Assembly (NCBI GenBank): GCA_964016885.1
Contig: OZ024766.1
Location: 15,500,001-15,564,000 of the forward strand
Direction: 5' to 3'
Source: Eledone cirrhosa
Lineage: Eukaryota
DNA: 64,000 nucleotides
Position 1 is the first letter of the stretch, and every line of letters begins with the position of its first letter. Shown in pieces: positions 3,048 through 60,286 of this stretch. A program made the translations under genes and the position numbers. Below the pieces are notes generated by a model. The model was not told where the DNA came from, did no database searches, and was given only the letters and a program-made list of their open reading frames with translations.

Positions 3048-3659
3048 CAGTGTCATGGTATTAGCTGTCAGAAGTGAAAGTAGAAGGTGACGTCATTCGT
3101 CAACCTTCTCAATCCTTTATTTCCGTATCACTATTCCCTTTATTTATGTTTAGGATTTTCTAAGAGATACGTTTACGATGAGATACACTTATTAAAAAAT
3201 ATATGGGGACCAAATAACCCCGTAATTTGAGAGAGAAACGATAATATACAATCTTATTTAACATGTGTATTAAAAACTACACTAGCTGTTACAATTGTAA
3301 TTAACGTGTAAGAATTTAAATGAAAATATAGGTGGCCCTTAAAAGGGCTGGTGTTGAACTTAAATTTGTTTTCTAATTTGATAACCATGACTTGTTTCAA
3401 CACCGGCCCTTTTAAGGGCCACCTATATTTTCATTTAAGTTCTTACACGTTAATTACAATTGTAACAGCTAGTGTAGTTTTTAATGCACATGTTAAATAA
3501 GATTGCATATTATCGTTTCTCTCGAAAATTACGGGGTTATTTGGTCCCCATAAATAAAATCATAAACGTAAATAAACGGAATAGAGATATGGAAATAAAG
3601 GATTGAGAAGGTTGACGACTGATGTCACCTTCTTTCTGACAGCTAATACCACGACAGTG
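3048..3659. mobile_element. Fold-back element with long imperfect inverted arms
   Basis: 3048-3359 is largely the reverse complement of 3395-3659; absent at the paralogous site near 14335; interrupted copy at 36572-41595. Confidence 0.8.
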
Positions 3660-4006
3660 CCCTTTATTTCGATATCTTACATTAAAATGTTGACTGAGGG
3701 TGTGGCAACTGTTTCTTGTTTGAGGTTGTTCCAGTGGTTGGAAGGTATATTAAATAATAAAGACAGTCATGATAACAATATATTTTATATCACATGTAAC
3801 AGTGGAATCTGATGATTGAAAAATATCACATCAACATTTCAGTTGGGAAGTGTTTTTTCTATATATAAAAGTGGAGGAAGAAATATATTTTTCTAATGTT
3901 ATATATATTTTCACTTGTATATAATTACTGGGTCGTTGTAGGGTTCACATAATTATATTATTTACATACATTAATATAGACATTAAGTAAATCTTTGTCA
4001 ACTTAC

Positions 4007-4205
4007 CTCCTTCAGATATAATCAATGTGTTGTGTTGTTAGTTGTTACTAAACAACCAAAGAAATAATCTCTTTGTTATCAAATTAGAAGTTTCAATGTT
4101 ATCAGCTTTATTTCACGACATTAACGTTGGTGTATCTTCTTCATCTTTAGTCATAAATTGATATCTTGTCAGAATGAAGTAGTGAGGCTGACTTTATGTC
4201 TTTAG
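4007..4205 (-). other. Putative non-coding 5' exon (module copy 1)
   Basis: Acceptor aaatctgtag and donor GAG|gtaagt are both conserved in three paralogous copies; no long ORF. Confidence 0.5.
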
Positions 4206-4407
4206 CTACAGATTTGATAGGAAATATATATATATTAGGTTGATATGTGGTCTAAAATATATATATATTGTCTATAAATGACTGATAGCAGATGTTCTGG
4301 TGAAATAGTAGCTTTACTACTACAGATTGTAATGGAACTCTTAGTAGACACAATTGTAAAGTAAGAATAGATATGACAGTGTAAGACTGATGTCGGGGAA
4401 TTAAAAT

Positions 4408-4460
<53 letters not shown>

Positions 4461-5839
4461 GTTACACAAGATATAATTAGATTAATTAAAGTTATAATAA
4501 AGACAGCAGGTACGCGGTATCGTTGGGAATGTTTCAACTGTCGTACCGGTCTCATACGTTAAAAGTCCCTGATATAATTTAATACCTTCAGACACAGTTC
4601 CAATCGTATTTAATTTATTGTAAATCAGAAAGTATCACTCAATGAAATATCAATTATATATCAATAAGAAAGCCTCTACGTAGTCTCACTGACTGCTAGA
4701 AATAGCAGCGATATTATACAATACAACTGCTCTCTCTCTAAATATATATACACATATATGTACGTATGTATGTATATGGGTATGAATGAGTGTGTAAGTG
4801 TGTATATGTGTACATAGGGTTTTGGTATATGTACGTTTGGTGAACATATGTGTATTTACCTGTAGGTTTGTGTGAGTGTGCGTTCTATACGCATTTATGC
4901 GTGAATATTTATATATAATTAGATGTATACACACAAACATATATTTATATGTGTATTTGGTGTATATGTCCGTACGTGTGCGGGTATATGTGTCGCACCG
5001 GTTTACGTCTGTGTGTGCGTGTTTATGTGTACGTGCATGCATGCCGTGTGTTTTCGCATATACACGTGTATAAATGTGTGTATGCATATATTTAATTATT
5101 ATTACTTTTATGATTTTAATAACCTCTGTCATTTTCGTTCAACTAATTTATTTTCATTATTCTGAACTCCGAAGCCGAGAATCATTCAGTTTCCTAAATA
5201 GTATATTAGTCTACGACTCTATTTATACCATAAACGTGGTTTTGTCTTTACGTGAAATCGTTCTTCGTTCCACATAACGACGTATTATCTTCGCTTTTTT
5301 CCGTTCATTGCCAGGAAACGTCTTCACGAACCAAAGTATCGTCTTCCTGTTTTCCTTCGGTTGCAAAGTTTTTCGAAATATTTACTTTTTCGGTCATGGA
5401 TTGATTTTTTTTCAGTTTCAGAAGATCCTGTTAAGGGGGAAAGCAGCGATTATTTGCTTAAACTTTAATCTGTTATTTTAATATATATATATATATAATT
5501 GGTTTTGGATGCTAAAAGCGTCCATATGCAGTAGGCCGTTTGAGCACTCGATTCTCTCATAGAGCAGAGTATATCACAAAAAAAGAGAGAATCAGTGTTG
5601 CGATGAATGGAATTTAGTGGACATATTACAATCGTTTCTCTGGGGACCAACTCTGGGTACAATCGATGTGATGATCGAACCTGAAAATCTCAAGGCCCTC
5701 AGATATGTCTTGATTCTATGATATATATACATATATCTGAAGGGCAGTGCACCAGCATGGCCTCAGCCAGATAGCTGGAACACGTAAAAGAGTAAAAGAA
5801 TATCATACGTGTATATTCATATATTGTATTTATCCTCAT

Positions 5840-8150: not shown

Positions 8151-8797
8151 GTACATATACACACATACATACACAAATAAATCAAACACAGATATGCACA
8201 TACGTATATACAAACATAGATACAACATATACATGGACACAAATTTCTACACACATACATTCACATATATATAACATGTGTAAATTCTGAACAATACAGT
8301 TTTGTCGGCAAAACTCTTGGTTACAACTTCTACAAATAAAATTAAAGGAGAAGAATTTCTTAGTAAAACAGTTTTATTCAAAATATTAACAACATTGGTG
8401 GCACTATTTTGGGTTAGTGACATGGTTTTCATCTTGTCTAATTGTGTTGCATTAAGTAATCTTTAGAAGAGAACAATTTATCACAGACATCACAGTGATA
8501 TGGTTCCTCTCCTGTAGATGTTAGTGTCTAATGAAGTCACAGAATTTAGAGAAGCATTTACCACATACATCATAGTGATATGGTTCCTCTCCTGTAGATG
8601 TTAGTGTCTAGTGAAGTCACAACATTTAGAGAAAGATTTACCAAATATATCAAAGTGATATGGCTTCCCAGCTTTATGTATATGTTTGTGTGTAACATTC
8701 AAAGAGAATGGTTTCTCTCAGATGTCACAATGATATGTATTTGTATTCTCATTAATTCACAAATTTGAGGGAATGATTTATTTCTGATGTCAATGCA

Positions 8798-10653
<1,856 letters not shown>

Positions 10654-19426: not shown

Positions 19427-19996
19427 TTGTTTACATTCTGTGTTTTTCTACGGATGGATAGAAATAACAAAATTGCCATGGTGATATCGATGGATGAAGC
19501 ATGCGACAAAACTGGTCGATGTTCCAAAATAGAACATTGCCCAGAAAACCACATTTGCCATATTTGTACGGAACCCGAAAACTCGTTCCGTAATCGCTGG
19601 GTCGAATGTGGAACCTGGCACATCTATGTCTGCCTTCAATGCGCCACAGGCTTCCGGAGGATCCCAGGCCCCCAAAAGAGACATCATAATGCTATGATGG
19701 ATTGAATCTGGGAGATGGTCCAGCTAAAATCTTGGTCCGTTAGTGCCTGGCCTGTGCGCCTGCCTCCACTAATGTTATTGAAAAACAACAACAACAACAA
19801 CAAAAACCAATGACTGTATCTCCCTCCACCATTGTTATTGAACAACGGCAAAAACCTATGACACTGGCTTCTGCTGCTATTCCCGTGGGAGAACATCAGA
19901 AACAACAACAACCCATGTCTTCCGCTCCCAGTACATCTCGACACCAACAACTGGTGACTGTGTCTTCCCCTACCATTCCCGTGGAGGAGGAGGAGG

Positions 19997-20045
<49 letters not shown>

Positions 20046-20714
20046 GCAGCAGCAGCAGCGGCAGCGGCAGCAGCAGCAGCAGCAACCGACCAGTACAGAT
20101 TTTGCAGAATTGCAACTATTGATTTCTGCTTTAAAAAGGGAAGTAACAGGAATAAAGGCAAGCATTCGGGTAGGACCCCACAATGAGGGGTCTTATCGGA
20201 ATGCCTTGCTAAAGAATCTCCCTGTACCTCTTGCCATATCTGGGTACACTGAGAAGACTGCAGAATCTGCTACCCATGAAGTAATTACCATTGGGGTACC
20301 AGAGGACAAGGCTGATCTTCAGGCATTTGCTGCCAGCTCAGCCAAAGACCTAGGCTGTGTTCCCCCAAAGAGTGCTCTCCGCCTTGGTCAACCTGGTCCA
20401 AAACCCAGACTCATCAGGCTGTCTTTTTCGGACCCCGCTGAGGCAATCTCATACCATCTAGCCTCTGTTAAAGCTGGGCGTGAAAATCTGATTACCTTCT
20501 GAACACGCCCAGGCCTACCACCCCAAAGCTACGTGCTGCAGCTTCCTTGAATCGGAACTCAGCACAGCATGAAAGTTTTAGTCTGCGTGATGATGGACAG
20601 ATCTGGAGGTTTGTTAAGGCTGGTGAAACGTGGAAGAGAGATACCAGCTGGTCTGAGTGTGCTCTACCCACAATAACTGGCAATGAAAAAACTGCAACAA
20701 CTCTGGGAAACTAA
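19427..20714 (+). pseudogene. LINE ORF1 (PHD-like finger, polyQ, RRM-like C-terminus), disrupted
   Basis: ORFs 19427-19705 and 19810-20502; (CAA)n(CAG)n at about 19999-20085. Confidence 0.7.
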
Positions 20715-25573: not shown

Positions 25574-26008
25574 GAGATGATATTAATAAATGGAATCTAT
25601 ATTTATAAAAACATATTTATTCTATTATACATATTTCAAGGGTACCAAACCTTTTGTACGCTCTATCAGATAAAATAGAAAGTTTGTTTTATAAATAGTG
25701 ACATATCCAGGAATGATACCTTAACGGTTCAAGTTTCTCCTGGATAGTGAAAGGAAAGAGAGAAAAAGGGAAGAAAGGAAAAACAAATATTTCAAATTAT
25801 TTTGATGAATATGCAGATGATATTTTACCACAAATATTACAGTGATATGGCTTTTCTCCAGTATATATATATGTTTCTATGTAGTTAATGTAGCAATGAA
25901 GGAGAATAATTTCACCCCAACATCACAGTGGTATGTCTTCTCACTCATATAAATGTATTTGTGTTTAATTAATTCACCATTTTGAAATAATGAGATATGA
26001 CTTTGTTA

Positions 26009-26347
<339 letters not shown>

Positions 26348-27334
26348 CTAGTCTCCTGTATGGTTACGTTTGTGACTAGTTAAGTTACTACTTACAGAGA
26401 ATGATTTACCACAGATATCACAGTGATATGGCTTGTCTCCTGTATGGGTACGTTTGTGGCTAGTTAAGTTACTACTTACAGAGAATGATTTACCACAGAT
26501 AACACAGTGGTATGGCTTGTCTCCTGTATGGGTACGTTTGTGGCTAGTTAAGGTACTGCTTACAGAGAATGATTTACCACAGATATCACAGGGATATGGC
26601 TTGTCTCCTGTATGTACACGTTTGTGACCAGTTAAGTGACTACTTCGAGAGAATGATTTACCACAGATATCACAGTGATATGGCTTGTCTCCTGTATGTA
26701 TAAGGTTATGTGTAGTTAAGTTACTACTTGCAGAGAATGATTTACCACAGATATCACAGTGGTATGGCTTGTCTCCTGTATGGGTACGTTTGTGTCTAGT
26801 TAAGGTACTATTATCAGAGAATGATTTACCACAGATATCACAGTGATATGGCTTGTCTCCTGTATGTATAAGGTTATGTGTAGTTAAGTTACTACTTGCA
26901 GAGAATGATTTACCACAGATATCACAGTGGTATGGCTTGTCTCCTGTATGTGTACGTATGTGTCTAGTTAAGTTACTACTTAGAGAGAATGATTTACCAC
27001 AGATATCACAGTGATATGGCTTCTCTCCTGTATGTATATGTTTGTGGCTAGTTAAGTGATTACTTTCAGAGAATGATATACCACAGATATCACAGTGGTA
27101 TGGCTTGTCTCCTGTATGTGTATGTTTGTGACTAGTTAAGGTGTTACTATCAGAGAATGATTTACCACAGATATCACAGTGATATGGCTTGTCTCCTGTA
27201 TGTATATGTTTGTGGCTGGTTAAGGTAGTACTTACTGAGAATGATTTACCACAGATATCACAGTGATATGGTTTCTCTTCTCTAACCTTCGTCATCTCAC
27301 CAGGAATACTAAACACTTTAGATTGTGTTCCCAT
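26348..27334 (-). CDS. C2H2 zinc-finger protein, 11 tandem fingers, no effector domain seen
   Basis: 328-aa ORF of 28-aa repeats; exon acceptor tttcag at 27707; four more in-frame fingers follow the TAG, to TAA at 26006-26008. Confidence 0.85.
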
Positions 27335-28048
27335 TTAATCTTCTCAGTCAATTTATTTGGCATAAATATATTTTCTTCAACAGAATATACAAATGTTTTA
27401 CTTGTAATATTTCATATTCCTAAAAATATTTCTTCTTCTATATTTCCCTCAACTGTGATTTCAGTTAATATCTGAAGATAATATAAACTTATGTTTTATC
27501 CAAGTTTAGTTAAAATACAAAACCATCTCATAGTGATGAAAATAAACTCAGTTCGGAGGAAATATTTCACAGTAATTGAACTATAGATTTATATAAACAG
27601 TGTTATATAAGTTCTGTTTAAAATGTTTTAGTCTTCAAATGATGATAAATATAGGTGATGTATCCAAGATTGAAAATAATAATTTATCCCAATGTCATCT
27701 GGTATTCTGAAATGAAAAAGAAACAGTATGAGATAATAGAGAATACTTAAGAAACAGAGATAGATTTAACAGTGGAAATTTTATATTTCTATATTGGTAA
27801 ACTATAGATATCAACTTTCCTATCCGGAGCAATTCTCTCCAATGTAAGCTGGTATTCAAGCAAGCTCTGTAAATTATATCCTTCTATCTCTAGAGAGGTC
27901 TGCTCTATGGCAGTTTAGCAAAAAATTCATTCTGATGGGACTTTCTAACGTAGCTATCATCTCCTCTCCTGGTGACATGTCAACACCGGTTTAACATATA
28001 CATATATAAATATATATTATCACACACATATACACATATATATATACA

Positions 28049-28088
<40 letters not shown>

Positions 28089-28107
28089 TATATGTATTTA
28101 TATATAT

Positions 28108-30791
28108 GCAACTTTTACAAACAACTGCAATGACAGAGGACGGAGACATCGTTATGCTAGCAGGGGACTTAAATAGTCATGTTGGACAGCTCCAGGATGG
28201 TTACACTGGGGTACATGGTGCGCACGGTTATGGCTCAAGAAATGAAGAAGGAGTGAGACTTCTTGAATTTTGTGATGCAAGTGCACTGACTGTTTGCAAC
28301 ACAAACTTCCAGAAACCTGCCAACCACCTAATAACCTACAAATCAGGCGAGCACATAAGCCAGATTGACTTCTTACTGGTTAGGCAGCGGCACAGGCAGA
28401 TGGTGTCAAATACCAAGGCATACCCTGAGGAAGAATGTACCCCAGAGCATAGGTTAGTCGTTAGTGATATCTCAGTAAGCAAGAGATGGAATGAGACATA
28501 CAGGAAGGTGTGTAAAAGAAAGGTCTGGAAGCTAAAAGACCTTTCACTATAAAACAAATTTAGGAAAGCCCTTCAAGATGTGTGTGACGAAAAAGAAGAC
28601 AATTTAGAGACGTATGACATAGATAATAACTGGAAGTTCTTACATGACAACTTGCTGCAGGCTACTGATGAAACTTGTGGCGGGAGCAGAGCTCCAACCA
28701 GACAGAGAGTGACCTGGTGGTGGAACAGCACAGTAGTTAAAGCCATCAGAGACAAAAGACTAGCATGGAAGGCTTGGAAAAAGGGTGGGAGTAGGGAAGA
28801 ATACACAGCCGCTAAGAGAGAAGCTAGACGTCAGGTGTACTTAGCACGCAGGGAGGCTGAGAGTAGGAGGTTTGCCAATGTTCTGTGACAGGAAGATCAG
28901 AGGCGTGCGGTGTTCCACATTGCAAGGCAGTGTGTCAATGCAAATCAGGATGTTGCTGGAGTTAAATGTGTCTGGAATGATGACGGTGTACTTAGTGTTA
29001 CGACTTATCAAAAATAGGAGGCCTGGAAATGTCATTATGAGAGGCTGATGAATGTGGAGAATGAATGGGAGAGAGAGAAATTACCCTCAATAGGTCCAAC
29101 AGAGGGACCAGCTATTGAGATTGACGAATATAGGGTACAAGAGGCGACTAAGGAAATGAAAAATGGTAAGGCTTCTGGAGCGTCGGGCATAGTTGCTGAG
29201 ATGCTGAAGGCATCAGGGGATGTAGGCACTAAACTGGTTGCACGCATCATCAATCAGGCTATATATGGTGGTGTCATACCCAAAGACTGGTGCAGCAGTA
29301 TTCTCATAAATTGCTACAAAGGTAAAGAGGATGCTCTGGAGATGAGCAATTATAGGGGTATAAAACTGATGGATCAGGTTATGAAAGTGACAGAAAGGAT
29401 ATTAGTACAACTAATTAGAGAAAGGGTCAAACTAGATGAGATGCAGTTTGGTTTTGTGCCTGGGAAGAGTACAACAGATGCGCTTTTCTTGGTGAGACAA
29501 TTACAAGAGAGGTTCTTAGAGAAGAATAAGCCACTATACTTAGCCTTTGTTGCTTTAAAGAAGGCCATTGATAGGGTACCCCAATCTGTCATCTGGTGTT
29601 CCCTAAGGAAGCTAGGTGTTGAGGAATGGCTTGTGAGTACAGTGCAAACTTTGTACAGAGGTGCTGTCAGTAAAGTCATGGTAGGAATGGAGTTTAGTGA
29701 GGAATTCCAGATACAAGTTGGTGTACATCAAGGTTTGGTCCACAGCCCGCTCTTGTTCATTATAGTCCTCCAAGCCATAACAGAGGAGTTTAAGACTGGC
29801 TGTCCATGCGAACTTCTGTATGCTGATGATCTGGTTCTTATAGCAGAATCAGTAGAGGAGCTAGAGAATAAATTCTGGCTATGGAAACAGCAGTTGGAAT
29901 TAAGAGGACTGAGAGTGAACCTAGCTAAGACAAAAGTGTTGATGAGTAGAAAAGAGGACAAAACTCCGATTCCATCAGGGAAATGGCCATGTTCGATATG
30001 CAGAAAAGGAACTGGCATAAATTCTATAAAATGCACACAATGCAGATCCTGGGTACACAAGAGATGTAGCAAGCAAACTAACAGGTAGGGAGAAATATGT
30101 ATGCAGTAGATGTACAGGGAAATTAGACAGTAGAAGTCGCAGTGATAGACACATTTTTCAAATGCAGGAGGGCGCTATAGAAGTGGTGAATAGCTTCCGG
30201 TACCTAGATTAGATTAGCATGGGAGGGGGTGTTCCGAGGCCATAGTATCTAGAATAAGGTCGGGTTGGAAGAAGTTTAGGGAGCTGCTTCCTCTGCTGAC
30301 GAAGAAGGGTTTCTCCCTGCGTACGAAAGGCCGGTTATATGATGCCTGTGTGAGGAGCGCGATGCTGCATGGTAGTGAGACATGAGCAGCAACTGCAGAG
30401 GATATGCGACAGCTGGAGAGAAATGAGGCAAGCATGCTCCGTTGGATGTGCGTGAACGACCCAGCATGAATGTGTTGAGAGAGAAACTGTGTCTGAGAGG
30501 GATAGAATGTAGTGTACGGGAGAGGAGACTGAGGTGGTATGGACATGTGATGCGTATGGAGGATGACAGATGGGTGAAGAAGTGCCAGGAAATGCCAGTT
30601 GAAGGAAGACGTAGTAGAGATAGACCACAAAAAACATGGGCGGAGGTGGTGATAACAGACCTCAGATCGCTGAAGCTCACGGTGGAGATGACGAAGGACC
30701 GTGACAAGTGGAGAGATGCTGTGCTGAATAAGACCCGTCCCACCCTTGCAAGCAGGGAAGAGCAGACATAAAATGATGATGATGATGATGA
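28108..30791 (+). mobile_element. 5'-truncated, degenerate RTE LINE
   Basis: GDLNSHVG, NYRGIKL, QFGF, LLYADDL and WYGHVMRM motifs with stops; (GAT)n tail. Confidence 0.92.
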
Positions 30792-30800
30792 TATACACGT

Positions 30801-31150
30801 GGAGGCACATGGCTTCGTGGTTAGAGCATTGGCCTTGCAATCGAAACGTTGTGAGTTCAATTCTCAGACCAGGTGATGTGTTGTTTCCTTGAGCAAGACA
30901 CTTTATTTCACATTGCTCCAGTTTACTCAGCTGTAGAAATGAGATGATAGGGACTGGGGTCCATATCACTCCACTGCAAAGTGGTCGTGGAGGTGCCACG
31001 GAAAAAAAGCACCCAGCACTCACTGTAAATGAGGTTGGTGTTAGGAAGGGCATCCAGCTGTAGAAATCAAGCCAGAATCAGTTGCCGTCCCACCCTTGCA
31101 AGCAGGGAAAAGTGGACGTAAAATGATGATGATGATGATGATGATGATGA
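30801..31150 (+). mobile_element. SINE family A, full length
   Basis: GGAGGCACATGGCTTCGTGGTTAG head, B box, tail shared with the adjacent RTE. Confidence 0.88.
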
Positions 31151-41225: not shown

Positions 41226-41941
41226 GTATATAATTAACGTGTAAGAACTTAAATGAAAATATAGGTGGCCCTTAAAAGGGCATGTGTTGAACTTAAATTT
41301 GTTTTCTAATTTGATAACCATGACTTGTTTCAACACCGGCCCTTTTAAGGGCCACCTATATTTTCATCTAAGTTCTTACACATTAATTACAATTGTAACA
41401 GCTAGTGTAGTTTTTAATGCACATGTTAAATAAGATTGTATATTATCGTTTCGCTCGAAAATTACGGGGTTATTTGGTCCCCATAAATAAAATCATAAAC
41501 GTAAATAAACGGAATAGTGATACGGAAATAAAGGATTGAGAAGGTTGACGACTGACGTCACCTTCTTTCTGACAGCTAATACCACGACAGTGCCCTTTAT
41601 TTCGATATCTTACATTAAAATGTTGACTGAGGGTGTGACAACTGTTTCTTGTTTGAGGTTGTTCCAGTGGTTGAAATATAGACGGAGGTATATTAAATAA
41701 TAAAGACAGTCATGATAACAATATATTTTATATCACATGTAACAGTGAAATCTGATGATTGAAAAATATCACATCAACATTTCAGTTTGGAAGTGTTTTT
41801 TCTATATATAAAAGTGGAGGAAGAAATATATTTTTCTAATGTTGTTATATATATTTTCACTTGTATATAATTACTGGGTTCACATAATTATATTATTTAC
41901 ACACATTAATATAGACATTAAGTAAATCTTTGTCAACTTAC

Positions 41942-42095
41942 CTCCTTCAGATATAATCAATGTATTGTGTTAATTAGAAGTTTCAAAGATGTTATCAGCT
42001 TTATTTCACGACATTAACGTTGGTGTATCTTCATCTTTAGTCATAAATTGATATCTTGTCAGAATGAAGTAGTGAGGCTGACTTTATGTCTTTAG
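41942..42095 (-). other. Putative non-coding 5' exon (module copy 3, upstream of ZNF 26006-27706)
   Basis: Paralog of 4007-4205 with an internal deletion; splice sites retained. Confidence 0.5.
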
Positions 42096-42609
42096 CTACA
42101 GATTTGATAGGAAATATATATATATTAGGTTGATATGTGGTTTAAAATATATATATTGTCTATAAATGACTGATAGCAGATGTTCTGGTGAAATAGTGGT
42201 TTTACTACTACAGATTGTAATGGAACTCTTAGTAGACACAATTGTAAAGTAAGAATAGATATGACAGTGTAAGACTGATGTCGGGGAATTAAAATTGTGT
42301 GTATATATATATATATAATTGTTACACAAGATATAATTAGATTAATTAATATTATAATGAAGACAGCAGGTACTCGGTGTCGTTGGAATGATTCAACTCT
42401 CGTTCCGGTGTCATACGTTAAAGGTCCCTGATATAATTTAATACCTTCAGACATAGTTACAATAGTATTTAATTGATTGTAAATCAGAAATTATCACTCA
42501 GTAAAATATCAATTATATATCAATAAGAGAACCTCTACGTAGTCTCTCCAACTGTTAGAAATAGCAGCGATATTATCCATTACAACTGCTCTCTCTCTAT
42601 ATATACGAG

Positions 42610-42661
<52 letters not shown>

Positions 42662-43103
42662 TGTATGTATGTATGTATGTATGTATGTATGTATGTATGT
42701 ATGTATGTATGTATGTATGTATGTATGTATGTATGTGTATATATGGGTATGTATGTGTGTTTGCACGTATGTATGGTGTGTATATGTGTACATAGGGTTT
42801 TGGTATATGTATGTTTGTTGAACATATGTGTATTTACCTGTAGGTATGTGTGAGTGTGCGTTCTATACGCATTTATGCGTGTATATTTATATATGTGTAT
42901 ATAATTATATATATATACACACACACAAACATATATTTATATATGTATTTGGTGTATACGTTCGTACGTGTGCAGGTGTATGTGTCGCCCCGGTTTACGT
43001 CCGTGTGCGCGTGTTTATGTGTACGTGCATGTATATGCATGCATGGCGTGAGTTTTCGCATATGTACGTGTATAAATGTGTGTATGCATATATTTAATTA
43101 TTA

Positions 43104-44243
43104 CTAGCAGCAGGACCCGGCGTAGCACGGAGTAGGAAACATGAAATAGCAACACGCATATGCAAAAATTGAGGAACGTAGCTGTGTACTTTTTGAATTC
43201 CCTTATTCTCAGGGAATGATTGTTCATCTACTGGAAACGTAGAACACCAGCAGGCAGAATCCAGTAGTAGCGGTGTCAGTGGGCTGATTGCGGAAATCCT
43301 GTATGCCAAAGGAGTAAGTAAGTGTTGTGGGGCGATGTATGCCGTAAGTCTGTTCACAAATTACGTCACAGTTGGGGAACACACGTCAGTCTGAAGGAGC
43401 GACGTAGTCAATTGTGTGAAAACCAAGTAGGGATGTACATTTAAGTAGGGATATTGAGATGACGAAATCAGCGTGGCAACGCAGCTGCAGCAGAAGGGGG
43501 TCATAGTGCAATTAGCACAAACACTGGGCGGCACTGGTTTACACAGCAACAAAGGTGCGACAAAAGGGGTCACTGTGGAATTAGCACAACCGCTGTTCAG
43601 CGTACTTGCGCAGGACGTTCATACTGCAGTGTAGGTGCAACAAAAGGGGTATTAGTAGAAGTAGCACAGGCGTGAGTTTTACGGTGTCAATAACACGTCA
43701 ACGTACACAGGGCCTGGATTTGTGCGTGATGAAAGTACGAAGCGTCAACAGGGTGCTGACAAATATTTTAAGGTCCTCCTCATTTCCTCAACCCCAGGAA
43801 AATGATCCTGCTTAAAAGTAAGTAAGTATTGTGTCCTCTGTTAAATAAACCAAATTTTTTAACGAAATATTATACGTTATTTACGATGTTTAAGTAGTGT
43901 TTATATTGAAAATGAAAAAGGCAAATAATGCCCAATGCTAATTCGTAAATTTCCTAGAAACCATTAATGGAATCGGAAATCTTTTTGTCCACAGCAATGT
44001 GAGGGGACTAACGAATGTGTGCTGCAAATTTAGAGGAAATCGGTTGGATTATATTTAAGTAACGCCTCAAAAAAGACTAAAAATGCCTAAAAAATGCGGT
44101 TTTTCGCCTAATGCGGACCATAGGGCAGAAAAGTTGACATTATTTTAGCCCATTGCACTTCAAGAAATATAAGTAACGTATGTGTAATGTTTGAAAAAGT
44201 CGGTTGGGTACTTCTAGAGTTTTAGGGATTTACACAGACATTC

Positions 44244-44250
<7 letters not shown>
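43104..44250 (-). mobile_element. Non-autonomous Helitron-like element
   Basis: 3' end is CCGTGCTACGCCGG hairpin plus CTAG|T; 5' end ATATATAAAACAGAATGTCTGT; absent at the paralogous site near 5100. Confidence 0.65.
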
Positions 44251-44283
<33 letters not shown>

Positions 44284-44362
44284 GTCCAATTCTTGCTAGC
44301 AGGGAAAGTGGACATTTAAAACAACAACCTGCAAAATTTTATATAGACTTAGTCTATTTCCA

Positions 44363-44448
44363 TGCCAGTATGGATTGAATGTGTGTCACTGATGAAAGAT
44401 TAACAAATCTTGAAACAACACTGTCTGGCATCCATGAGTGGACTGGCA
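44363..44448 (+). ncRNA. Extended type I hammerhead ribozyme, GUC cleavage site
   Basis: GTGTCA-CTGATGA-AAGAT-taacaa-ATCTT-GAAA-CA-acac-TG-TC-TGGCAT; stem I extends through ATGGA/TCCAT and TGCCAGT/ACTGGCA. Confidence 0.8.
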
Positions 44449-45281
44449 ACTTTGTTATATATTATTAGAAGATTATCGAGACAAATAAATTGCTTTGTTA
44501 CGAAAAAATAATTTTCTTTGATAGCAAGTCTACTAAAATGACATGTTTTCATCTGCACCCCTATAAGGCGTAAGATAGAAATCTGATTTGATTTTATTGC
44601 ATCTCTCCCTCTCTCTTTCTTGCTGACTCTCTCTCCCACTTCTACTCAATGAATTCCTATACAAGGTTCTCTTATTCCATTGTTTACTTTCAACTACTCC
44701 CAGTATGTCAGTGGCCAGAAGTAAATAAAAGTTTGAGAAACTTGTTGAAACTATAAAACGAATGAAATGGTAAAAATGCATTACATAATGGAGTTGTGAA
44801 ACAAAAACTATATTTTAAACGACACTTAAAACATTTTAAACATCAAAATATTAAAACTTCATAAATATATTTAATACTCATGAGTATTTCAAAACCATAC
44901 AATCTAAACATAATGTGTTGATTAGCTACCTCAGCTTATAAACGGGTTTTCGATTTTTGCCCATTTCTCAGGCATAAAATAGGAGTTTAGATTATATTTA
45001 GATCAGTTGATATTTGAGTATATATGGTAATGTCTCTGTTATGTCTAATTTAGGGAAAAGAGAAAAAAAATAGATAGGATAACAAAATATCAAATTCTGG
45101 ATATCACTATATATGATTACCACATTGCTCTTGATTCAGCAACCCTAGGAAAAAGATGTACCATTATATTAATGACTTTCTGTTTCTATTTCAAATGACA
45201 TAAACTCATTAAGCTCGAAATTATACACACACACACACACACAGACAAAATAAAATAAAATATGGTTAAAAAAGTTCCATA

Positions 45282-45351
45282 TACTTTATTATGCGCATTT
45301 CGAAAACAACATCATCCTGCGACAAAAATTGTGTTCTCATCAGATAAAATA
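45282..45351 (-). ncRNA. Type I hammerhead motif, same family as 60216 and 60357
   Basis: TATTTTAT-CTGATGA-G..stem II..C-GAAA-TGCGCA-TA-ATAAAGTA. Confidence 0.72.
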
Positions 45352-45509
45352 AGGTAACATGGTATGAGGCCTAAACACACTTGTCAACAGGAAAGTGTCA
45401 AGTCTACATATGACAGAAATATAAGAGTAAGAAAAAGATAGGAAAATAGAAGGAAAGAAGGAGAAAAAGGAAAAAGAAAGACAGGAGAGGAAAAAAAGAG
45501 GAAAACGAA

Positions 45510-45551
<42 letters not shown>

Positions 45552-46484
45552 GAGAGAAAGAGAGAGTGAGAGAGACTTTTGATCAGGAATGCTGTCAAAA
45601 TGAAACAAGCTGTAAATAACGGTTAAACAGTAAATTGATGAGGTGTATGTGCGATAAAATAAAGGGGTCGATAAAATAAAGTACCAGTAATGCACTGGTT
45701 AATTGCTGGCCTTGTGCCAAAACGTAGAAACAATTATAGATGGTATTCAAATATTAGAGGTCTAAAATATAGAAACTGGGTATATTATTTTATATTGGGT
45801 TTAAATACTAAAAATTGGATTAAGAAGTGTAAAAATGTATTAATAAAATAAAATTTAAAAAAATAAAATTAAATTAAAATAAGTATAAAAAAGATTTTTT
45901 TATAAAATAACATTAAATTAAAAAATAAAAATAGTCTATCTATGTCAAAACTAAAAATTTCTATAAAAATCTATATATGTGGGGTATTTAATTATTATTT
46001 TATATCAACAAGTAAAGGAAATTGCTAGAATGATTTATAAAGGGAGAAAGACATATGACGTCATCGAATGTTTGAACGAAAATCTAAGGCTATCGAAAAA
46101 AGGTGAAAGGCTTAAAATATGCTGAGAAACTGAATTAATACATTGTAGAATATATTGAAATATGTGTAAACAAAATATGTGTAAAAAATTAACCGTTATT
46201 CGTGGAATATGTTATAGGACATTAGCTATATACTTTGTGAAAGTGTATATATATATATATTGTGAATATATATATATATATATATATAAATGAAAAGTAT
46301 AGAAATTATTGTAGCAAGAAGCCAACAGTATTCCAAAATATATAAGTGACTATAATGTCAAAATGGAAAAATAGTTAACGTAAGATGTGGGAAAATAATT
46401 CAAACTCAATGCATATATATATATATTATATATATATGCATATATATATATATTATATATATATGCATATATATATATTATATA

Positions 46485-47018
46485 CTAGCAGAGGTTCCGG
46501 GCGTTGCTCGGGTATTAAATAGCAGTTGTGTATACCATTTATGTCAATACTTCAGTGCTGCTTCGAAAAGTATACTTTTACAAAATCATCGGCTTTTTCC
46601 AAAAGGGGGCTCTTGCCCCAGGGGTCCCCTACTCAACATGTGCCAATTCTGAGAGTTCATATTCATCTGTAGGACAAACGTAGCCCATGTGTCAAGTTTT
46701 GTGAAAATCGGTTGCGAACTCCGGAAGTTATGATGTTTTGTTGCATTGCACTGCAGTGCTTCGGTCGACTCCAAGGAAGTAGCTAAAGGGAGTTATCTGC
46801 CGGGAGGCCCTATAATAAAAATCTGTAAAAATGAAAGTGCCCATGACCATCCGGAGTACATAAGTAACCTATATCTTAAGTTTGGTGAAAATACTGTAGA
46901 AATGCATAAGGTTTACAAATGGATGAACCTTCTTGAACTGGTTTCACAGAAATTCATCCATCATGTTGTACATATACACACACAGACATGTCTCTCTGTA
47001 TTTGTGTGTGTGTGTGAG

Positions 47019-47089
<71 letters not shown>

Positions 47090-47795
47090 TGTGTGTGTAT
47101 GTATTTGAGTGTGCGTATGTACATGTATGTGTATGTCCGTCGGCGCATACGTATGTACTGGCCTAAATCTTCACTATTTACTTTTACTATTTTAAGGCAA
47201 AGTTCAAATCCCGTCGAGGTTAACTTTGCCTTTCATCCTTACGGGGTCGATAAAATAAAGTACCAGTAATGTATTGGGTATTTGCTGGCCTTGTTCCGAA
47301 AGTAGAAACAACTATTTTAATAACCTCTGTCATTTTCGTTTACAATTTTATTTACATCATTCTTAAACTCCGGGGCTGGAAATCATTCGGTTATTTTAAA
47401 TAGAATATTAGTCTAACGACTCCATTTACACCATAAACTTGGTCTTGTCTTTGCATGAAATTGTTCTTCGGTCCACCGAGTCGTTTATAACGTAACATAA
47501 AGAGATAAGAAAGTGAAAGCCATAAAAGGGAAATAACTCGTCTCTCATCTCTATTTATACATTTGAACTGAAAAATCAATACATTACAAATTCGATTTTT
47601 GCACTTGGCGTGAGTCGATTTGAATATTTTTTTGACCGAAGTTTCCGCTGAACCTTCATCTATGAGTGTAGCAATTTCACCGAAATTTGAACGTATGGTT
47701 TAAGAGGAGATGTGTGCCGACGGATTTAGTAGACAGACACACAGACAGACGGACAGGCAGACAGACACACAGACAGACAACCTCAGTTTTATATA
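46485..47795 (-). mobile_element. Helitron-like element(s) with nested (GT)n and SINE B
   Basis: 3' CCCGAGCAACGCCCGG plus CTAG at 46485; 5' ATATAAAACTGAGGTTGTCTGTCTG near 47790; may be two pieces. Confidence 0.5.
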
Positions 47796-47819
47796 TATAT
47801 ATATGCATATATATATATA

Positions 47820-48494
47820 CTAGCAGTAAAGCCCGGCGTTGCTCGGGGTCGCTCAGTAGCTGTGTTAAAGTTACAATGTTAAGTTTCTTTTTTGGCTTAA
47901 AAACTGTAGTGTCTACTGTGCAGACTTGCATGTGGTGTTTTTGATTAATATTCCCTCAACCAACAATATGCCTTATGAAGTTAAGAAAACATAACGATAA
48001 CCCGAATGTTATAAAAAAAGAGGAAATATTTGCTTGTTTTACGTAGTCTTTAAATAGACTTGTTTTCAAGTAAAAATATTGTTTTAAAAGGCTTTTAAAT
48101 GGAAATGAAGCAAAACGGAAGTTTAGTGTTCGAACTGATGAATTTTGCAGGTCAAAATTTTGCTGGCTCGACAACTGTTCGTGTATTGTGTTAATGTCAT
48201 TTTAAACGCTGAGAAAGCCAGCATAATTTTTTTAATTTTTGCACGCAGAAAATGTAAACAGAACGTAAGACGCTCAATGTAAACAGAACAAAGGGAAATA
48301 ACTCGTCACTTACGCTCAAAAATCGATACATTAGATTCGATTTCGTCACATAGGGTGGGTCAATTTGAAATATTTTTTTCCGATGTCTTCGCTAGGGCTC
48401 AATGTACAAGTATAGCAATTTCGGTGCAATTCCGTCAGAGATTCTAAGAGGAGATGTGTGCCAAAAATCGATAGACAGACAGACAACCACAGCT

Positions 48495-48500: not shown

Positions 48501-50690
<2,190 letters not shown>

Positions 50691-50788
50691 ATACTTTGGG
50701 AGGGTCATGTTGCCAATAAGAAACACACGCACCAGTTGCTTTCACTTCAATTTATTATATATTTATAAATTTATAAATTTACAAACTT

Positions 50789-51135
50789 CATGTATAGATA
50801 AGAAATGTATAACCTGTAAAATAAGCCTCCATATTAACTGTAAAACTAGAAATGTAGTGTATAGCATAAGATGTACTGAAGGACAATGTAGAAACAAAAA
50901 TATAGTGTACATAGGTGAGACAGCTCATAGTATAGGGGAACGAATAAATGAACACTGGCGAGACCTCCAAGATAATAAAGAATCATCTGTGCTCTACCAA
51001 CATGCTAAGATAGAACACAGGGGTAGATTAGAGAACATAGAAATAAAAATAGAATCCACACACAGAAAAGACGCAATGTTTAGGCAAATTACAGAGGCAG
51101 TAAGCATAAAAGAATTAAAACCCAAAATTAAATAG
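50789..51135 (+). pseudogene. PLE GIY-YIG endonuclease fragment
   Basis: CITC...NCKTRNVVYSIRC...YIGET...ERINEH...LYQH...RQITEAVSIKELKPKI. Confidence 0.88.
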
Positions 51136-51482
51136 AAAATATGAGTGGAACAGCAACATCACAACTTACAATTAAGGACAAAATGAAAACACACACAAGA
51201 CAAAATGAAAACACACACACACATAGAACAAACAACTTACAATTAAGGACAAAATGAAAATACACACAGGACAAAATGAAAACACACACACGCATAGAAC
51301 AAACAACCAACCAACAATAAATAAATAAATAAATAAACAAATAGATAAATGAACACAAACACACACAGACACCCGGATGTGGCGCATGCGCAAACTGAGC
51401 ACACAACAGACACACACACACAGAAACAAAATGGCGTAGGATAGAAGAAAGGAAAGGCAAAGAAACAAAGAAAGGAATCCCC

Positions 51483-51527
51483 AGTCACTGAAGAGGTCAC
51501 AGAGTGTGTGACGAAAGGACTATGATT
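51483..51527 (+). ncRNA. Minimal type I hammerhead motif
   Basis: AGTCA-CTGAAGA-g-GTCACA-gagtg-TGTGAC-GAAA-GGAC-TA-TGATT. Confidence 0.7.
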
Positions 51528-51939
51528 ATATATAAACAACTATCTGGTTGTGGAACCAACCAACCAACCAGAAATTTATAAGTTTGTAAATTTATAAATT
51601 TATAAATATATAATAAATTGAAGTGAAAGCAACTGGTGCGTGTGTCTCTTATTGGCAACATGACCCTCCCAAAGTATAACAATATCGGTTTCAACACACG
51701 ATTTCAGATAAAGAATCTTGCTAAACAAATTCAGAAACGAAATATATATATATGCATATATATATATGCATATATATTTATATATGCATATATATATATA
51801 TATATATATATGCATATATATTTATATATGCATATATATATATATATATGTATATATATATGCATATATATGCATATATATGCATATATATATATATGCA
51901 TATATATATATATGCATATATATATATATATGCATATAT

Positions 51940-54900
51940 ATCATCATCATCATCATCATCATCAACGTTTAACGTCCGTGTTCCACGCTTGCATGGGTTT
52001 GGACGGGGGTAGTCCCACTTGAGGCAAGAGTGATTGTCTTGCTCGCATAGGACTGTCTGGCAGGTTTTCTACAGTTGGATGCCCTTCCTAACACCAACCA
52101 CATTTACAGTGTGGGTCTGGGAGGTTTTTACCGTGTTGCCTACACGGCCACATTACAGCGTGGACTGTGTGTTTTTTTGTCGTGACACCTACACGATCTC
52201 ATTTGTTTCGGCCTCGATGGCGCGGCACCAACATAACTTTACATAGAACGGGGTGGTGTGGATGGGGTGGGGGTGGGGGTGGTGGGACGGGGTGTATTTT
52301 GTTAGAGATGCCTACTGGCTGGAGTAGGTTTTACTATATATTTAGGTAAGGCGGGTCTTCTCTGTTACTGAGTACCGCCAAAGGTCTCGGTCCAGTGACA
52401 TTGTCTTGGAGAGGTGTAAGTGTGTGATGTCGGAGTTTATCAGCTCGTCCCAGGTTTTTCTAGGTCTGCCTATTCCGTGACTACCGTCTATCTTTATTGC
52501 CCTGCACTTTGTTATACAGCTATCGACTTTCATGCGCATCACGTGTCCATACCAACGTAGCCTTCTCTCGAGTAAACAACATCTGATCCCTCTTATCTCT
52601 AATTTTTTCCTTAGTTCGTTTATGCTTTGCCGTTCACGTATATTACTGTTACACATCCAGCGGAGCATGCAAGCTTCGTTCCTCTCTAGTCTGCGTATAT
52701 CCTCTGCACACAATGCCCAGGTCTCACTGCCATGCAGCATTGCTGTTCGTATGCAGACATCGTACAACCTGCCTTTCATTTTTAGTGAGAACCCTTTAGC
52801 AGCTAATAGTGGTATAAGCTCTCTGAACTTTTTCCAACCAGTTCTGACTCTAGCTACAGTACTTTCAGAGCACCCTCCCCCACTGCTGATTTTATCGCCC
52901 AGGTAACGGAAGCTGTCCACTATTTCTATAGAACCCTCTGCGCAATTGAAAGAGCTAGTAGTTTGTGGGCACTTGCTGCTACTTATTGCACCAGAGCACC
53001 GGCCACATGTAAAATCTATGTTCTTAGTTAGCTTACCTGTGATCCCACTACATCTTTTATGCACCCATACTTTGCATTTAAGACATAAAATGGAGTTTCT
53101 ACCTACGCCTTTCCTACACACCGAGCACGACCATTTCCCAGAAGGGACCGCCGCCTTGTTTTCTTTCCTACAAACTAGTACTTTGGTCTTAGCCAGGTTA
53201 ATTTTAAGTCCTTTTGACTCTAGGCCGTGCTTCCATGTTTGGAATTTCTTCTCTAGCTCGGCCATTGATTCCGCTATGAGTGTCAGGTCGTCTGCGTATA
53301 GGAGTTCCCATGGGCAGCCTGTCTTGAACTCCTCTGTTATAGCCTGAAGGGCAATAATAAATAGTAGTGGGCTGAGAACAGAGCCCTGATGGACGCCAAC
53401 TTTTACGCTAAACTCTTCACTATATTCGTTGTTAATTCTAACCTTGCTGACTGTTTCTTTATACATGGCTTGTATAGCCCTCACAAGCCATTCGTCAACG
53501 CCTAGTTTTCTAAGAGCCCACCAGATAATGGAGCGGGGGACTCTGTCGAAGGCTTTCTCCAAGTCGACAAAAGCTAAGTAGAGGGGTTTACCTTTAGCTA
53601 GGTACTTGTCCTGTAGTTGTCGTACTATGAAAAGAGCGTCTGTGGTACTTTTGCCTGACACAAACCCGAACTGCATTTCATCTAGGTCAATTCTCTCTCT
53701 GATTAGTTGCGCTATTACTTTTTCCGTGACCTTCATGACCTGGTCGATTAATTTAATGCCTCTATAGTTACTCCTATCTAGGGCGTCTCCTTTACCCTTA
53801 TAACAGTTAACGATGATGCTGCTATGCCAGTCCTTCGGAACAACCCCATTCTGTACGACTTGGTTAACTATGCGGGTGACCATGGTGTGTCCCACCGTGC
53901 CAGATGCCTTCAGCATCTCAGCAACTATTTCCGAAGGCCCAGCCGCCTTACCCGTCTTCATATCCTTGATTGCCTTACTTATTATACTCCCCTCGACTAA
54001 CACTGCTGGTCCCTCTATTGGGTCGATATGGGGGAGACTGCCTTTCTCCCAATTATTCTCCTCATTTAGTAGCCTTTCATAGTGACACTTCCAAGCTACC
54101 TTCTTATCAGCGTCGCTGATGGCAAGTGTGCCATCGTCGTTTAGTACCCACTTCTCCCCGACAATATCACGGTTTTCCTTGACGCATTGCCTAGCAATCC
54201 TGAACACCTCACGTTTTTGGTCATCGCGTTGTAGAACATGCTTGAACTTTCTTTCCTCAGCTTCCCTTCTTGCTAAGTACACTTGTCTCCTAGCTTCCCT
54301 CCTGGCCACTTGATAGTCCTCTCTACTTCCCCCATCCCGCCATACTTTCCAAGCCTGCTTTTTGGCCTTAATTGACCCCTGCACCTTACTGTTCCACCAC
54401 CATGTTACTCTCCTCCTGCCTACAGGCCTGCTCCAGCCACAGACTTCGTCTGTCGCCAACAGCAGGTTTGCTTTCAGAAATTCCCACTCTCCCTCTATAT
54501 TGTCCGACTCTAAATGTTCTTCCTTACTGTCGAAAGCATCAAGTAATATGCTTTGAAATTTATTCCTGGCTGTGGGGTCCTTTAGCTTCCATATTTTCCT
54601 CCTGAGGATAGTCCTCTTCTGTTGTCGAGTACGTCTCGTCCTGACTATGAGGTCGCTAATTATCAGTCTATGTTGGGAGGTGCATTCTTCATGGGGGAGG
54701 GATTTAGTGTTTACAACAGACACTCTGTCACGTCTTCTGGTAAGGATATAATCTACCTGGCTTGTGTGTTCCCCGGATCTATAGGTGATCAGGTGATTGT
54801 CACGTTTTTTGAAGTTAGTGTTACAGATAGTTAGGTTATTTGCATCACAGAATTCCAGGATTCTGGAGCCTTCCTCATTTCTAGTACCAAACCCATAGCC

Positions 54901-55768
54901 TCCATGGATTTCGTCGTAGCCGTCACAATGTTGTCCAACGTGACCATTTAGGTCGCCTGCGATAATTATATAGTCACTGTCGGATATTTGGGAGGTAGTT
55001 AGCATCAGTGTCTCATAGAATCTGTCTTTTATAGTGCCGGGCAGTCCGGATTGGGGTGCGTACGCAGATATTACTGTCACCGTAGTTCTATTGAGGACAA
55101 GTCGTATTTTAATTATTCTGTCGTTCACTCTATTTACGTCTATTATCTTATCTGCCCACTTTTCTGCTACCATGATTCCTACTCCACCCAGCCCATCGTC
55201 GTTTCCCACCCAGAAAAGCTTATAACATCGTTTTTTACCCTCAATGAACCTAGCAGACCCACCCCTCCACCTGGTCTCTTGAATACAACAAACATCGACC
55301 TCCTTACGTTCAAGCATTTCTACAACCTCGTTAGCGCGACCCTTTAGGGTGCCTACATTTATGGTACCAACTCTGAAGTTTTGGATTGCGTTTGGGGGTT
55401 GGGGGCGGTGGGGGGCGGGGGGCGATGGGGTTATGTTAGCCGTCCGCGGTCGAAACAATGAGGAGTGCTCGCATTCTCGTCCAAGAGGTGAATTTGTCTT
55501 TATCTTTGGCATTGTCGCTGAGCGTCCAGATTTTTCTCTCTCTCACCTCCACTCTCCAGGATTCCGCAGTCCATCCATCCATCATATATCGAAAGGCAAC
55601 CAGGCAAGCGATAGTATAGGCCTCTGGTTTCTGATTGGTCCGCGTAATAATACTGGTGATGCGTGGGGGCTCTGTTTTATGATTGGTCCACGTAATAGCA
55701 ATGGTGGTGCGTGTGGGTGTTGGGTAGCTAGCAAGAAGGTAATGATTGAATGGGGTCCTTGCATTTAA
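51940..55768 (-). mobile_element. Full-length RTE-clade LINE
   Basis: About 250-nt 5' UTR, single EN-RT ORF, 400-nt 3' UTR ending in (GAT)n. Confidence 0.95.
52342..55512 (-). CDS. RTE polyprotein: APE endonuclease, reverse transcriptase and Cys-rich finger
   Basis: Uninterrupted 1056 aa; TINVGTL, IQETRW, GDLNGHVG, VDLEKAFDRV, QGSVLSPLLF, YADD, FRYLG. Confidence 0.95.
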   Translation of the reverse strand: MPKIKTNSPLGRECEHSSLFRPRTANITPSPPAPHRPQPPNAIQNFRVGTINVGTLKGRANEVVEMLERKEVDVCCIQETRWRGGSARFIEGKKRCYKLFWVGNDDGLGGVGIMVAEKWADKIIDVNRVNDRIIKIRLVLNRTTVTVISAYAPQSGLPGTIKDRFYETLMLTTSQISDSDYIIIAGDLNGHVGQHCDGYDEIHGGYGFGTRNEEGSRILEFCDANNLTICNTNFKKRDNHLITYRSGEHTSQVDYILTRRRDRVSVVNTKSLPHEECTSQHRLIISDLIVRTRRTRQQKRTILRRKIWKLKDPTARNKFQSILLDAFDSKEEHLESDNIEGEWEFLKANLLLATDEVCGWSRPVGRRRVTWWWNSKVQGSIKAKKQAWKVWRDGGSREDYQVARREARRQVYLARREAEERKFKHVLQRDDQKREVFRIARQCVKENRDIVGEKWVLNDDGTLAISDADKKVAWKCHYERLLNEENNWEKGSLPHIDPIEGPAVLVEGSIISKAIKDMKTGKAAGPSEIVAEMLKASGTVGHTMVTRIVNQVVQNGVVPKDWHSSIIVNCYKGKGDALDRSNYRGIKLIDQVMKVTEKVIAQLIRERIDLDEMQFGFVSGKSTTDALFIVRQLQDKYLAKGKPLYLAFVDLEKAFDRVPRSIIWWALRKLGVDEWLVRAIQAMYKETVSKVRINNEYSEEFSVKVGVHQGSVLSPLLFIIALQAITEEFKTGCPWELLYADDLTLIAESMAELEKKFQTWKHGLESKGLKINLAKTKVLVCRKENKAAVPSGKWSCSVCRKGVGRNSILCLKCKVWVHKRCSGITGKLTKNIDFTCGRCSGAISSSKCPQTTSSFNCAEGSIEIVDSFRYLGDKISSGGGCSESTVARVRTGWKKFRELIPLLAAKGFSLKMKGRLYDVCIRTAMLHGSETWALCAEDIRRLERNEACMLRWMCNSNIRERQSINELRKKLEIRGIRCCLLERRLRWYGHVMRMKVDSCITKCRAIKIDGSHGIGRPRKTWDELINSDITHLHLSKTMSLDRDLWRYSVTEKTRLT

Positions 55769-60215: not shown

Positions 60216-60286
60216 TATTTTATTATGCGCATTTCAAAAACAAATATCATCATGCGATAACATTTGTGTTTTCGTCAGATAAAATA
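60216..60286 (-). ncRNA. Type I hammerhead motif
   Basis: TATTTTAT-CTGACGA-16-bp stem II-GAAA-TGCGCA-TA-ATAAAATA. Confidence 0.75.

Follow-up and report, generated by a model that had tools for sequence, protein, structure and literature searches.

A hammerhead motif of Eledone cirrhosa as a probable neutral passenger in a multicopy Helitron

Does a lone hammerhead motif with an intact core mark a working ribozyme, or the residue of something that moved? This question is raised by an 86-nt segment in a 64,000-nt stretch of Eledone cirrhosa DNA (contig OZ024766.1, positions 15,500,001 to 15,564,000, forward strand), hereafter called the window. A sequence-only reading had described this segment as a stand-alone, textbook extended hammerhead, as either a retrozyme monomer or a domesticated ribozyme, and as the best candidate for an active ribozyme in the region. 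Our analysis makes it very likely that the hammerhead is a neutral passenger, sitting in an antisense half-monomer of an old repeat within a multicopy Helitron, with at most reduced predicted cleavage.

Sequence and fold of the motif

The elements of the motif are as follows; apart from the first entry, which rests on motif match, folding and family alignment, all were read directly from the sequence.

44363–44448, plus strand: type I hammerhead motif with intact core and decayed periphery
44383–44388/44426–44431, plus strand: stem I, 6 bp including two G-U pairs
44389–44395, plus strand: core CUGAUGA (C3–A9)
44396–44400/44407–44411, plus strand: stem II AAGAU/AUCUU, 5 bp, loop UAACAA
44412–44415, plus strand: GAAA
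44415–44417/44422–44424, plus strand: stem III, 3 bp, loop ACAC
44423–44425, plus strand: GUC, with predicted cleavage after C44425

The earlier description of a perfect core, a 5-bp stem II with a UAACAA loop, a 3-bp stem III with a 4-nt loop and a GUC triplet is confirmed by the sequence. All 12 core positions are intact, and CUGANGA, GAAA and UH are arranged around three helices of which helix I is open, as in a type I hammerhead. The generic core pattern occurs twice in the window, where 0.07 matches are expected from 100 shuffles. Because an Rfam scan gave no hammerhead match at the gathering score or at E ≤ 10, membership in the hammerhead class rests on the motif and on the family alignment described below.

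Folding z-scores are uninformative in this case. The 86-nt stretch folds no better than its shuffles (z −0.90), a 101-nt region is likewise at shuffle level (z −0.14), and four relatives gave z-scores from −0.55 to −2.56. The MFE structure of the window copy is not a hammerhead. When constrained, the hammerhead fold lies 1.8 kcal/mol above the MFE, and relative to the ensemble the gap is 3.2 kcal/mol; the window copy is nearer to its hammerhead fold than most of the parent-family copies tested.

Helitron termini around the motif

The label "stand-alone" applies to the window, in which we also found no second copy of this family, but not to the genome: a search for genomic copies shows that the motif is multicopy rather than unique, with 31 exact matches to the core pattern against none for the control. 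When 200 nt around the motif were compared with the 3.0-Gb genome, 634 candidates were returned and all 40 that were scored matched. Most of the 29 other core-pattern loci share large parts of window positions 43100–46000, so the most recently copied unit is kilobases long. Its parts in the window are listed here with the evidence for each.

43104 to about 47800, minus strand: composite non-autonomous Helitron carrying the half-unit (shared ends at other loci)
43104–43140, minus strand: Helitron 3′ hairpin and CTAG (sequence, other loci)
45250–45400, minus strand: second minimal hammerhead within the Helitron, unrelated to the first; its loop III is palindromic and its core begins at 45343 (pattern match)
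46485–47520, minus strand: additional Helitron piece that has a 3′ end of its own at 46485 (locus comparison)
about 47520–47800, minus strand: Helitron 5′ segment; its 5′ boundary is approximate, as it disappears into (TA)n, and another Helitron end adjoins it at 47820

The ends were established by comparison of twenty 10-kb loci. The same 3′ end (window position 43104) is present at 15 of them, and at 14 of these 15 a GC hairpin on the minus strand is followed by CTAG and then by a T, exactly as in the window. At 12 of the 15 loci the 3′ flank is unlike that of the window and unlike the others; the remaining three share the flank of the window and are segmental duplicates. Beyond the ribozyme, 10 of the 20 loci carry a segment that matches 47520–47750 and ends in TC(TA)n. 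Among nine 5′ junctions printed in the comparison, TC is preceded by A in six and by C in one, and another Helitron end abuts in two; the 5′ junction of the window itself is masked by (TA)n. For the piece at 46485–47520, 20 other copies were compared, and most of them had no match to it between the flanking segments. A neighbouring Helitron segment that does not include the ribozyme gave 35 matches of at least 92% identity among the 40 scored. From these matches we estimate that the Helitron-borne fragment exists in about 35 copies, some of which would be later segmental duplicates. The retrozyme half-unit lies antisense to the Helitron.

This anatomy resembles that of the non-autonomous Helitrons described in PMC4778049, which have TC at the 5′ end and a hairpin plus CTAG at the 3′ end, insert between A and T, occur with tandem ends and hold captured interior sequence. 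According to the same source, Helraiser has termini like those seen here, and bypass of its 3′ end captures flanking DNA. Unlike the Helitrons described there, the present element carries a fragment of a ribozyme-bearing retroelement rather than a piece of a gene. We found no report of hammerhead or self-cleaving ribozyme capture by a Helitron in the titles and abstracts of the papers examined, while supplementary family lists might already include this repeat; the portions of PMC6431247 considered here do not link Helitron and self-cleaving ribozymes.

Sequencing reads (three runs from one sample, possibly the source of the assembly) yielded a collapsed contig with T at 44434 and a depth of 338–370, together with minor contigs at a depth of about 5–12, a pattern that fits a few dozen copies but does not count as independent support and gives no copy number. 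The genome is rich in Helitron Rep domains (150 of 150 scored, from 3,704 candidates). Within 5 kb of the minus strand, three Helitron 3′ ends lie in tandem, at window positions 43103, 46484 and 47819. At G000:C27 (13.0–15.5 Mb) and G000:C20 (3.5–5.2 Mb), high Helitron Rep matches of similar score recur about every 100–170 kb, a spacing that suggests large tandem segmental arrays adjoining the window.

The parent repeat and the decay of the window copy

The cargo itself is part of a repeat unit of about 380 nt.

44334–44531, plus strand: about half of a ~380-nt retrozyme-like monomer (unit positions 98–297 of a 396-nt model, 75% identity)

The parent family was retrieved through one core-pattern match outside the Helitron, such matches being few. 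A search with it returned 869 candidates, and the best non-self identity among the 40 scored was 81–82%. Exact 20-mer matches place the unit at at least 148 sites in the genome, Helitron copies included (control 0). Our working unit of 396 nt includes a TA run of about 10 nt. Many family copies have direct repeats beside them at offsets of 317–419 nt, and two loci carry tandem hammerheads, 333 nt apart at L080 and 365 nt apart at L107. We then describe 71 loci, all chosen through the hammerhead region and with L107 counted twice (also as L175). At 16 of these, at least 396 nt of the unit are present and the sequence runs beyond one unit back into the unit; 17 of the 71 contain both orientations. 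Sampled copies are circularly permuted, partly tandem and often next to inverted pieces. One end site is shared by 22 of 70 loci, mostly just before (TA)n, a count that the TA run in the model may inflate. Identity to the family majority has a median of 82% and a maximum of 90%. When young copies were sought with the 3′ part of the unit, none appeared among the 40 scored (best non-self 84%), and no long tandem arrays of the unit were seen in the loci examined. With an identity near 82%, the parent family looks old. Beside one family copy (L179:1817–3014), a 28/52-nt piece of the unit has expanded to a long minisatellite.

A short non-coding unit within the 150–400 nt range, a type I hammerhead, and tandem or more-than-unit copies support the assignment of the parent family to the non-LTR retrozymes by anatomy. 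In metazoan retrozymes, too, a type I hammerhead resides in a short, low-GC, non-coding unit (PMC7229834; 10.64898/2026.07.22.740005), which in mussel measures 350–390 bp (PMC7229834), near the ~380 nt of the present unit, and dispersed monomer derivatives are described as common (PMC7229834; 10.64898/2026.07.22.740005). Unlike in the metazoan families described in these sources, no long arrays were seen here, and the window copy was re-amplified by a DNA transposon. Active retrozymes as a rule consist of two consecutive units, each with a hammerhead; in contrast, the window holds one hammerhead, and only 44334–44531 matches the unit. Since this is only about half a monomer, no retrozyme circle can be released from this locus. 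The suggested retrozyme monomer is supported as to ancestry but not as to "monomer".

We derived the family structure from 52 aligned copies, which allowed comparison of the window copy with 51 relatives. In the register that covaries across the family, a 6-bp stem I is followed by an unpaired U at position 1.7, which faces a UGA bulge, and then by two longer helices; 86% of the cells are paired in this register. The alignment shows 61 two-sided changes, most of them in outer stem I, compared with 27.4 in shuffles, whereas the number of pairs with a two-sided change is not in excess (12 against 11.0); relatedness between copies inflates both counts. This register displaces the one initially read for stem I, which we ruled out. 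Two further helices had been read beyond it: the outer helix, UGCCAGU/ACUGGCA, is confirmed, whereas AUGGA/UCCAU depends on A44434, which is present in 3 of 29 aligned copies.

Against this family structure the window copy is visibly altered. Position 1.7 (44432) is a U in 49 of the 51 relatives and a C in all 29 Helitron-borne copies. The bulge opposite is UGA in 40 of 51 relatives and UGU in the window copy, and the middle helix retains one Watson–Crick pair compared with a median of five in the 51 relatives. Helix III forms perfect palindromes of 8 nt in seven family copies and of 10 nt in three, with most others one or two changes away, whereas in the window copy 6 of 10 positions are self-complementary, against 10/10 or 8/8 in the palindromic forms. 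A palindromic helix III is described as a mark of dimer folding (PMC4209133, PMC3088659), and the ACAC loop III of the window copy is best read as a decayed palindrome. Four relatives have the ACAC loop as well, but the pattern by which they were selected required it. Loop II has not suffered in the same way: UAACAA is the commonest loop II of the family (17 of 51).

These changes bear on the expected activity. In the shared tertiary contact, the 5′ U of loop 1 pairs with the 3′ A of loop II (PMC2632901, PMC11875169), and in CChMVd hammerheads a U-to-C change at the 5′ base of loop 1 caused a smaller but significant loss (PMC2632901). In the window copy loop II does end in A, and the U1.7 partner is replaced by C44432 in the family register; U44431, within a 5-bp stem I, might stand in for it. 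The Schistosoma Sm-alpha hammerhead (PMC2632901, PMC11875169) is similarly of type I, with a 6-nt loop II ending in A and an internal loop beyond its 6-bp stem I. The family differs from it in having a 5-bp stem II with A-U or G-U at its base, and the window copy in having C for U in loop 1. With A-U as its 10.1–11.1 pair at the base of stem II, C at 1.7, the rare A44434, shuffle-level folding and an MFE structure other than the hammerhead, the window copy is not a textbook extended hammerhead. Its standing as the best candidate for an active ribozyme is likewise weakened by the decayed palindrome of loop III, the C at 1.7, the UGU bulge and the different stem I register. Nevertheless, activity may be appreciable, because the core is intact, loop II is the commonest of the family and the hammerhead fold is near the MFE. 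Some in vitro cleavage after C44425 is plausible.

Drift of the captured copies and alternative explanations

Whether the ribozyme is maintained can be judged from its Helitron-borne copies. The comparison drew on 33 loci, 30 from the search with the neighbouring Helitron segment and three from the twenty 10-kb loci. Of these, 11 were left out because their position and shared flanks marked them as presumed segmental or tandem duplicates, while the flank-sharing locus C12 was kept in; this left 22 loci, 19 of them with the motif aligned. Differences from the majority amount to 5/227 (2.2%) in the core and 341/14970 (2.3%) in the flanks (Fisher p = 1.0), with 12/492 in the stems. The motif as a whole (46/1630) does not depart from the flanks either (p = 0.17). 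The core is intact in 14 of the 19 non-duplicate copies. The power of this test is modest, with about five core changes expected and some mutations shared between copies. The core drifts at the rate of its flanks. This observation excludes strong family-wide constraint, which would have left the core nearly unchanged; selection on a single copy is not addressed by it.

This result weighs on the view that the captured hammerhead is a competent monomeric ribozyme which, at some of the ~35 Helitron sites, cleaves transcripts of the host or from read-through, with local effects on RNA. The intact cores in 14 of 19 copies and the proximity of the hammerhead fold to the MFE are what such a role would lead one to expect, and cleavage at about 0.1/min persisted in a mussel retrozyme hammerhead without most of the tertiary nucleotides (PMC7229834). 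However, neither core nor stems show constraint, U1.7, the UGA bulge and the middle helix are all altered, and no host exon was recognised among the long ORFs of the window, which leaves this role unlikely. The same low likelihood attaches to the related proposal that the Helitron re-dispersed a hammerhead still able to cleave in monomeric form, released from dimer control when its palindrome was lost, and so set up about 35 RNA-cutting sites. Domestication at a single locus, in the manner of the amniote intronic hammerheads, could appeal to the intact core and to the single family copy in the window. It is not supported, because the motif is multicopy and without constraint; in addition, the window copy departs from the majority of its lineage at 17 of 948 positions, including 44434, and its left flank is common to segmental duplicates. 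We regard domestication as highly improbable. Poorer still, to the point of being nearly negligible, are the prospects of a hammerhead that serves the cycle of the Helitron itself. Two hammerheads on opposite strands of one composite element could be read in this way, but Helitrons move as DNA (PMC4778049), the motif lacks constraint, and no aligned hammerhead was found at 4 of the 33 loci that hold the neighbouring segment.

A different objection concerns the origin of the parent repeat, which might be the pseudo-LTR (pLTR) of an autonomous Penelope-like element (PLE), its copies being 5′-truncated PLE ends; the Helitron step would be the same. Partial tandems, adjoining inverted pieces and microsatellite targets are hallmarks of PLEs (PMC8557442), GIY-YIG domains are abundant in this genome, and one study argues that retrozymes derive from pLTRs (10.64898/2026.07.22.740005). 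The hammerheads reported in pLTRs (PMC4209133, PMC8557442) are also of type I and share with the parent family a palindromic helix III, partial tandem or inverted arrangements and (TA)n targets. Against this origin, the upstream flanks have no common body, the few shared pairs being mostly at loci with further unit pieces upstream, and 16 of 71 loci run past one unit back into the same unit. The family hammerhead is canonical rather than minimal: an internal loop interrupts its extended stem I, in which it differs from the minimal pLTR motifs found at other positions of the window. Moreover, unlike in the reported pLTRs, we found no RT/GIY-YIG ORF linked to the family in the loci examined. Among 109 ORFs of at least 110 aa around the 71 loci none matched GIY-YIG and three matched RVT_1; conversely, 30 of 10,596 candidate GIY-YIG loci were checked and contained no clear match to the family repeat (best E 0.029, an unrelated sequence). 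A pLTR origin therefore seems very unlikely, and since no PLE carrying the family repeat was found in these small samples, we infer the mobiliser of the retrozyme-like family indirectly.

The history that best accommodates the retrozyme-derived passenger would begin with a parent element giving rise to tandem RNA cut to monomers by its own hammerheads, as anatomy and literature suggest, and these hammerheads probably used the palindromic helix III to fold as dimers. The monomers would then have been circularised, and a Penelope-like element is the likely agent of their reverse transcription and of their insertion at (TA)n. One truncated copy evidently lost the palindrome and U1.7, with its middle helix weakened, before it was amplified, as these changes are common to the Helitron-borne copies. 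A Helitron appears to have taken up this region, presumably by read-through of its terminator, and to have spread it at the DNA level to about 35 sites, as the termini and the differing flanks indicate. In these copies the ribozyme evidently mutates at the flank rate. Were the plus strand transcribed, the RNA would probably cleave slowly after C44425 and would have no selected role. Copy number and intact core at this locus stem from copying at the DNA level, not from selection on RNA, and a lone, perfect-looking animal hammerhead can thus turn out to be a relic at second hand. With its compensatory subfamilies and its palindromic helix III of two lengths, the parent family offers a natural series for comparing monomer and dimer cleavage; should the captured copies prove to cleave in vivo, Helitrons would offer a way for RNA cut sites to spread.

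Further features of the window are recorded here. The sequence-only reading had seen no PLE ORF in it; a GIY-YIG C-terminal fragment, unrelated to the present family, is nevertheless found at about 50685–51135. The interval 50685–51545 (plus strand) comprises this Penelope-type fragment, which has 79% amino-acid identity to L223, and a minimal hammerhead that follows it at 51488; together they are a PLE 3′ remnant that was missed by Pfam. Further minimal hammerhead-like motifs of at least three families lie at 45343 (minus), 60278 (minus), 60366 (plus), 35161 (plus), 25425 (minus) and 50082 (minus). The motifs at 60278 and 60366 represent a pair of copies in opposite orientation within some 200 nt of sequence, and the 50082 type also occurs at the GIY-YIG locus L238. 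A polyQ ORF at 19744–20502 is at most a possible host exon; its Pfam match is below the cut-off. An open frame of 1066 aa at 52342–55542 (minus strand) with AP endonuclease, RT and PHD domains is a near-intact LINE, with broken relatives at 28010–31077. Two arrays of one 84-nt satellite occupy 8468–10238 and 25824–27284. Rfam models identified histone 3′ stem-loops at 3400–3444 and 41333–41377, which sit in a duplicated 1.4-kb block (3298–4762 and 41231–42625, 89%). Immediately upstream of the one at 41333 is a partial copy in reverse orientation, and the sequence preceding this stem-loop shows no histone coding region.
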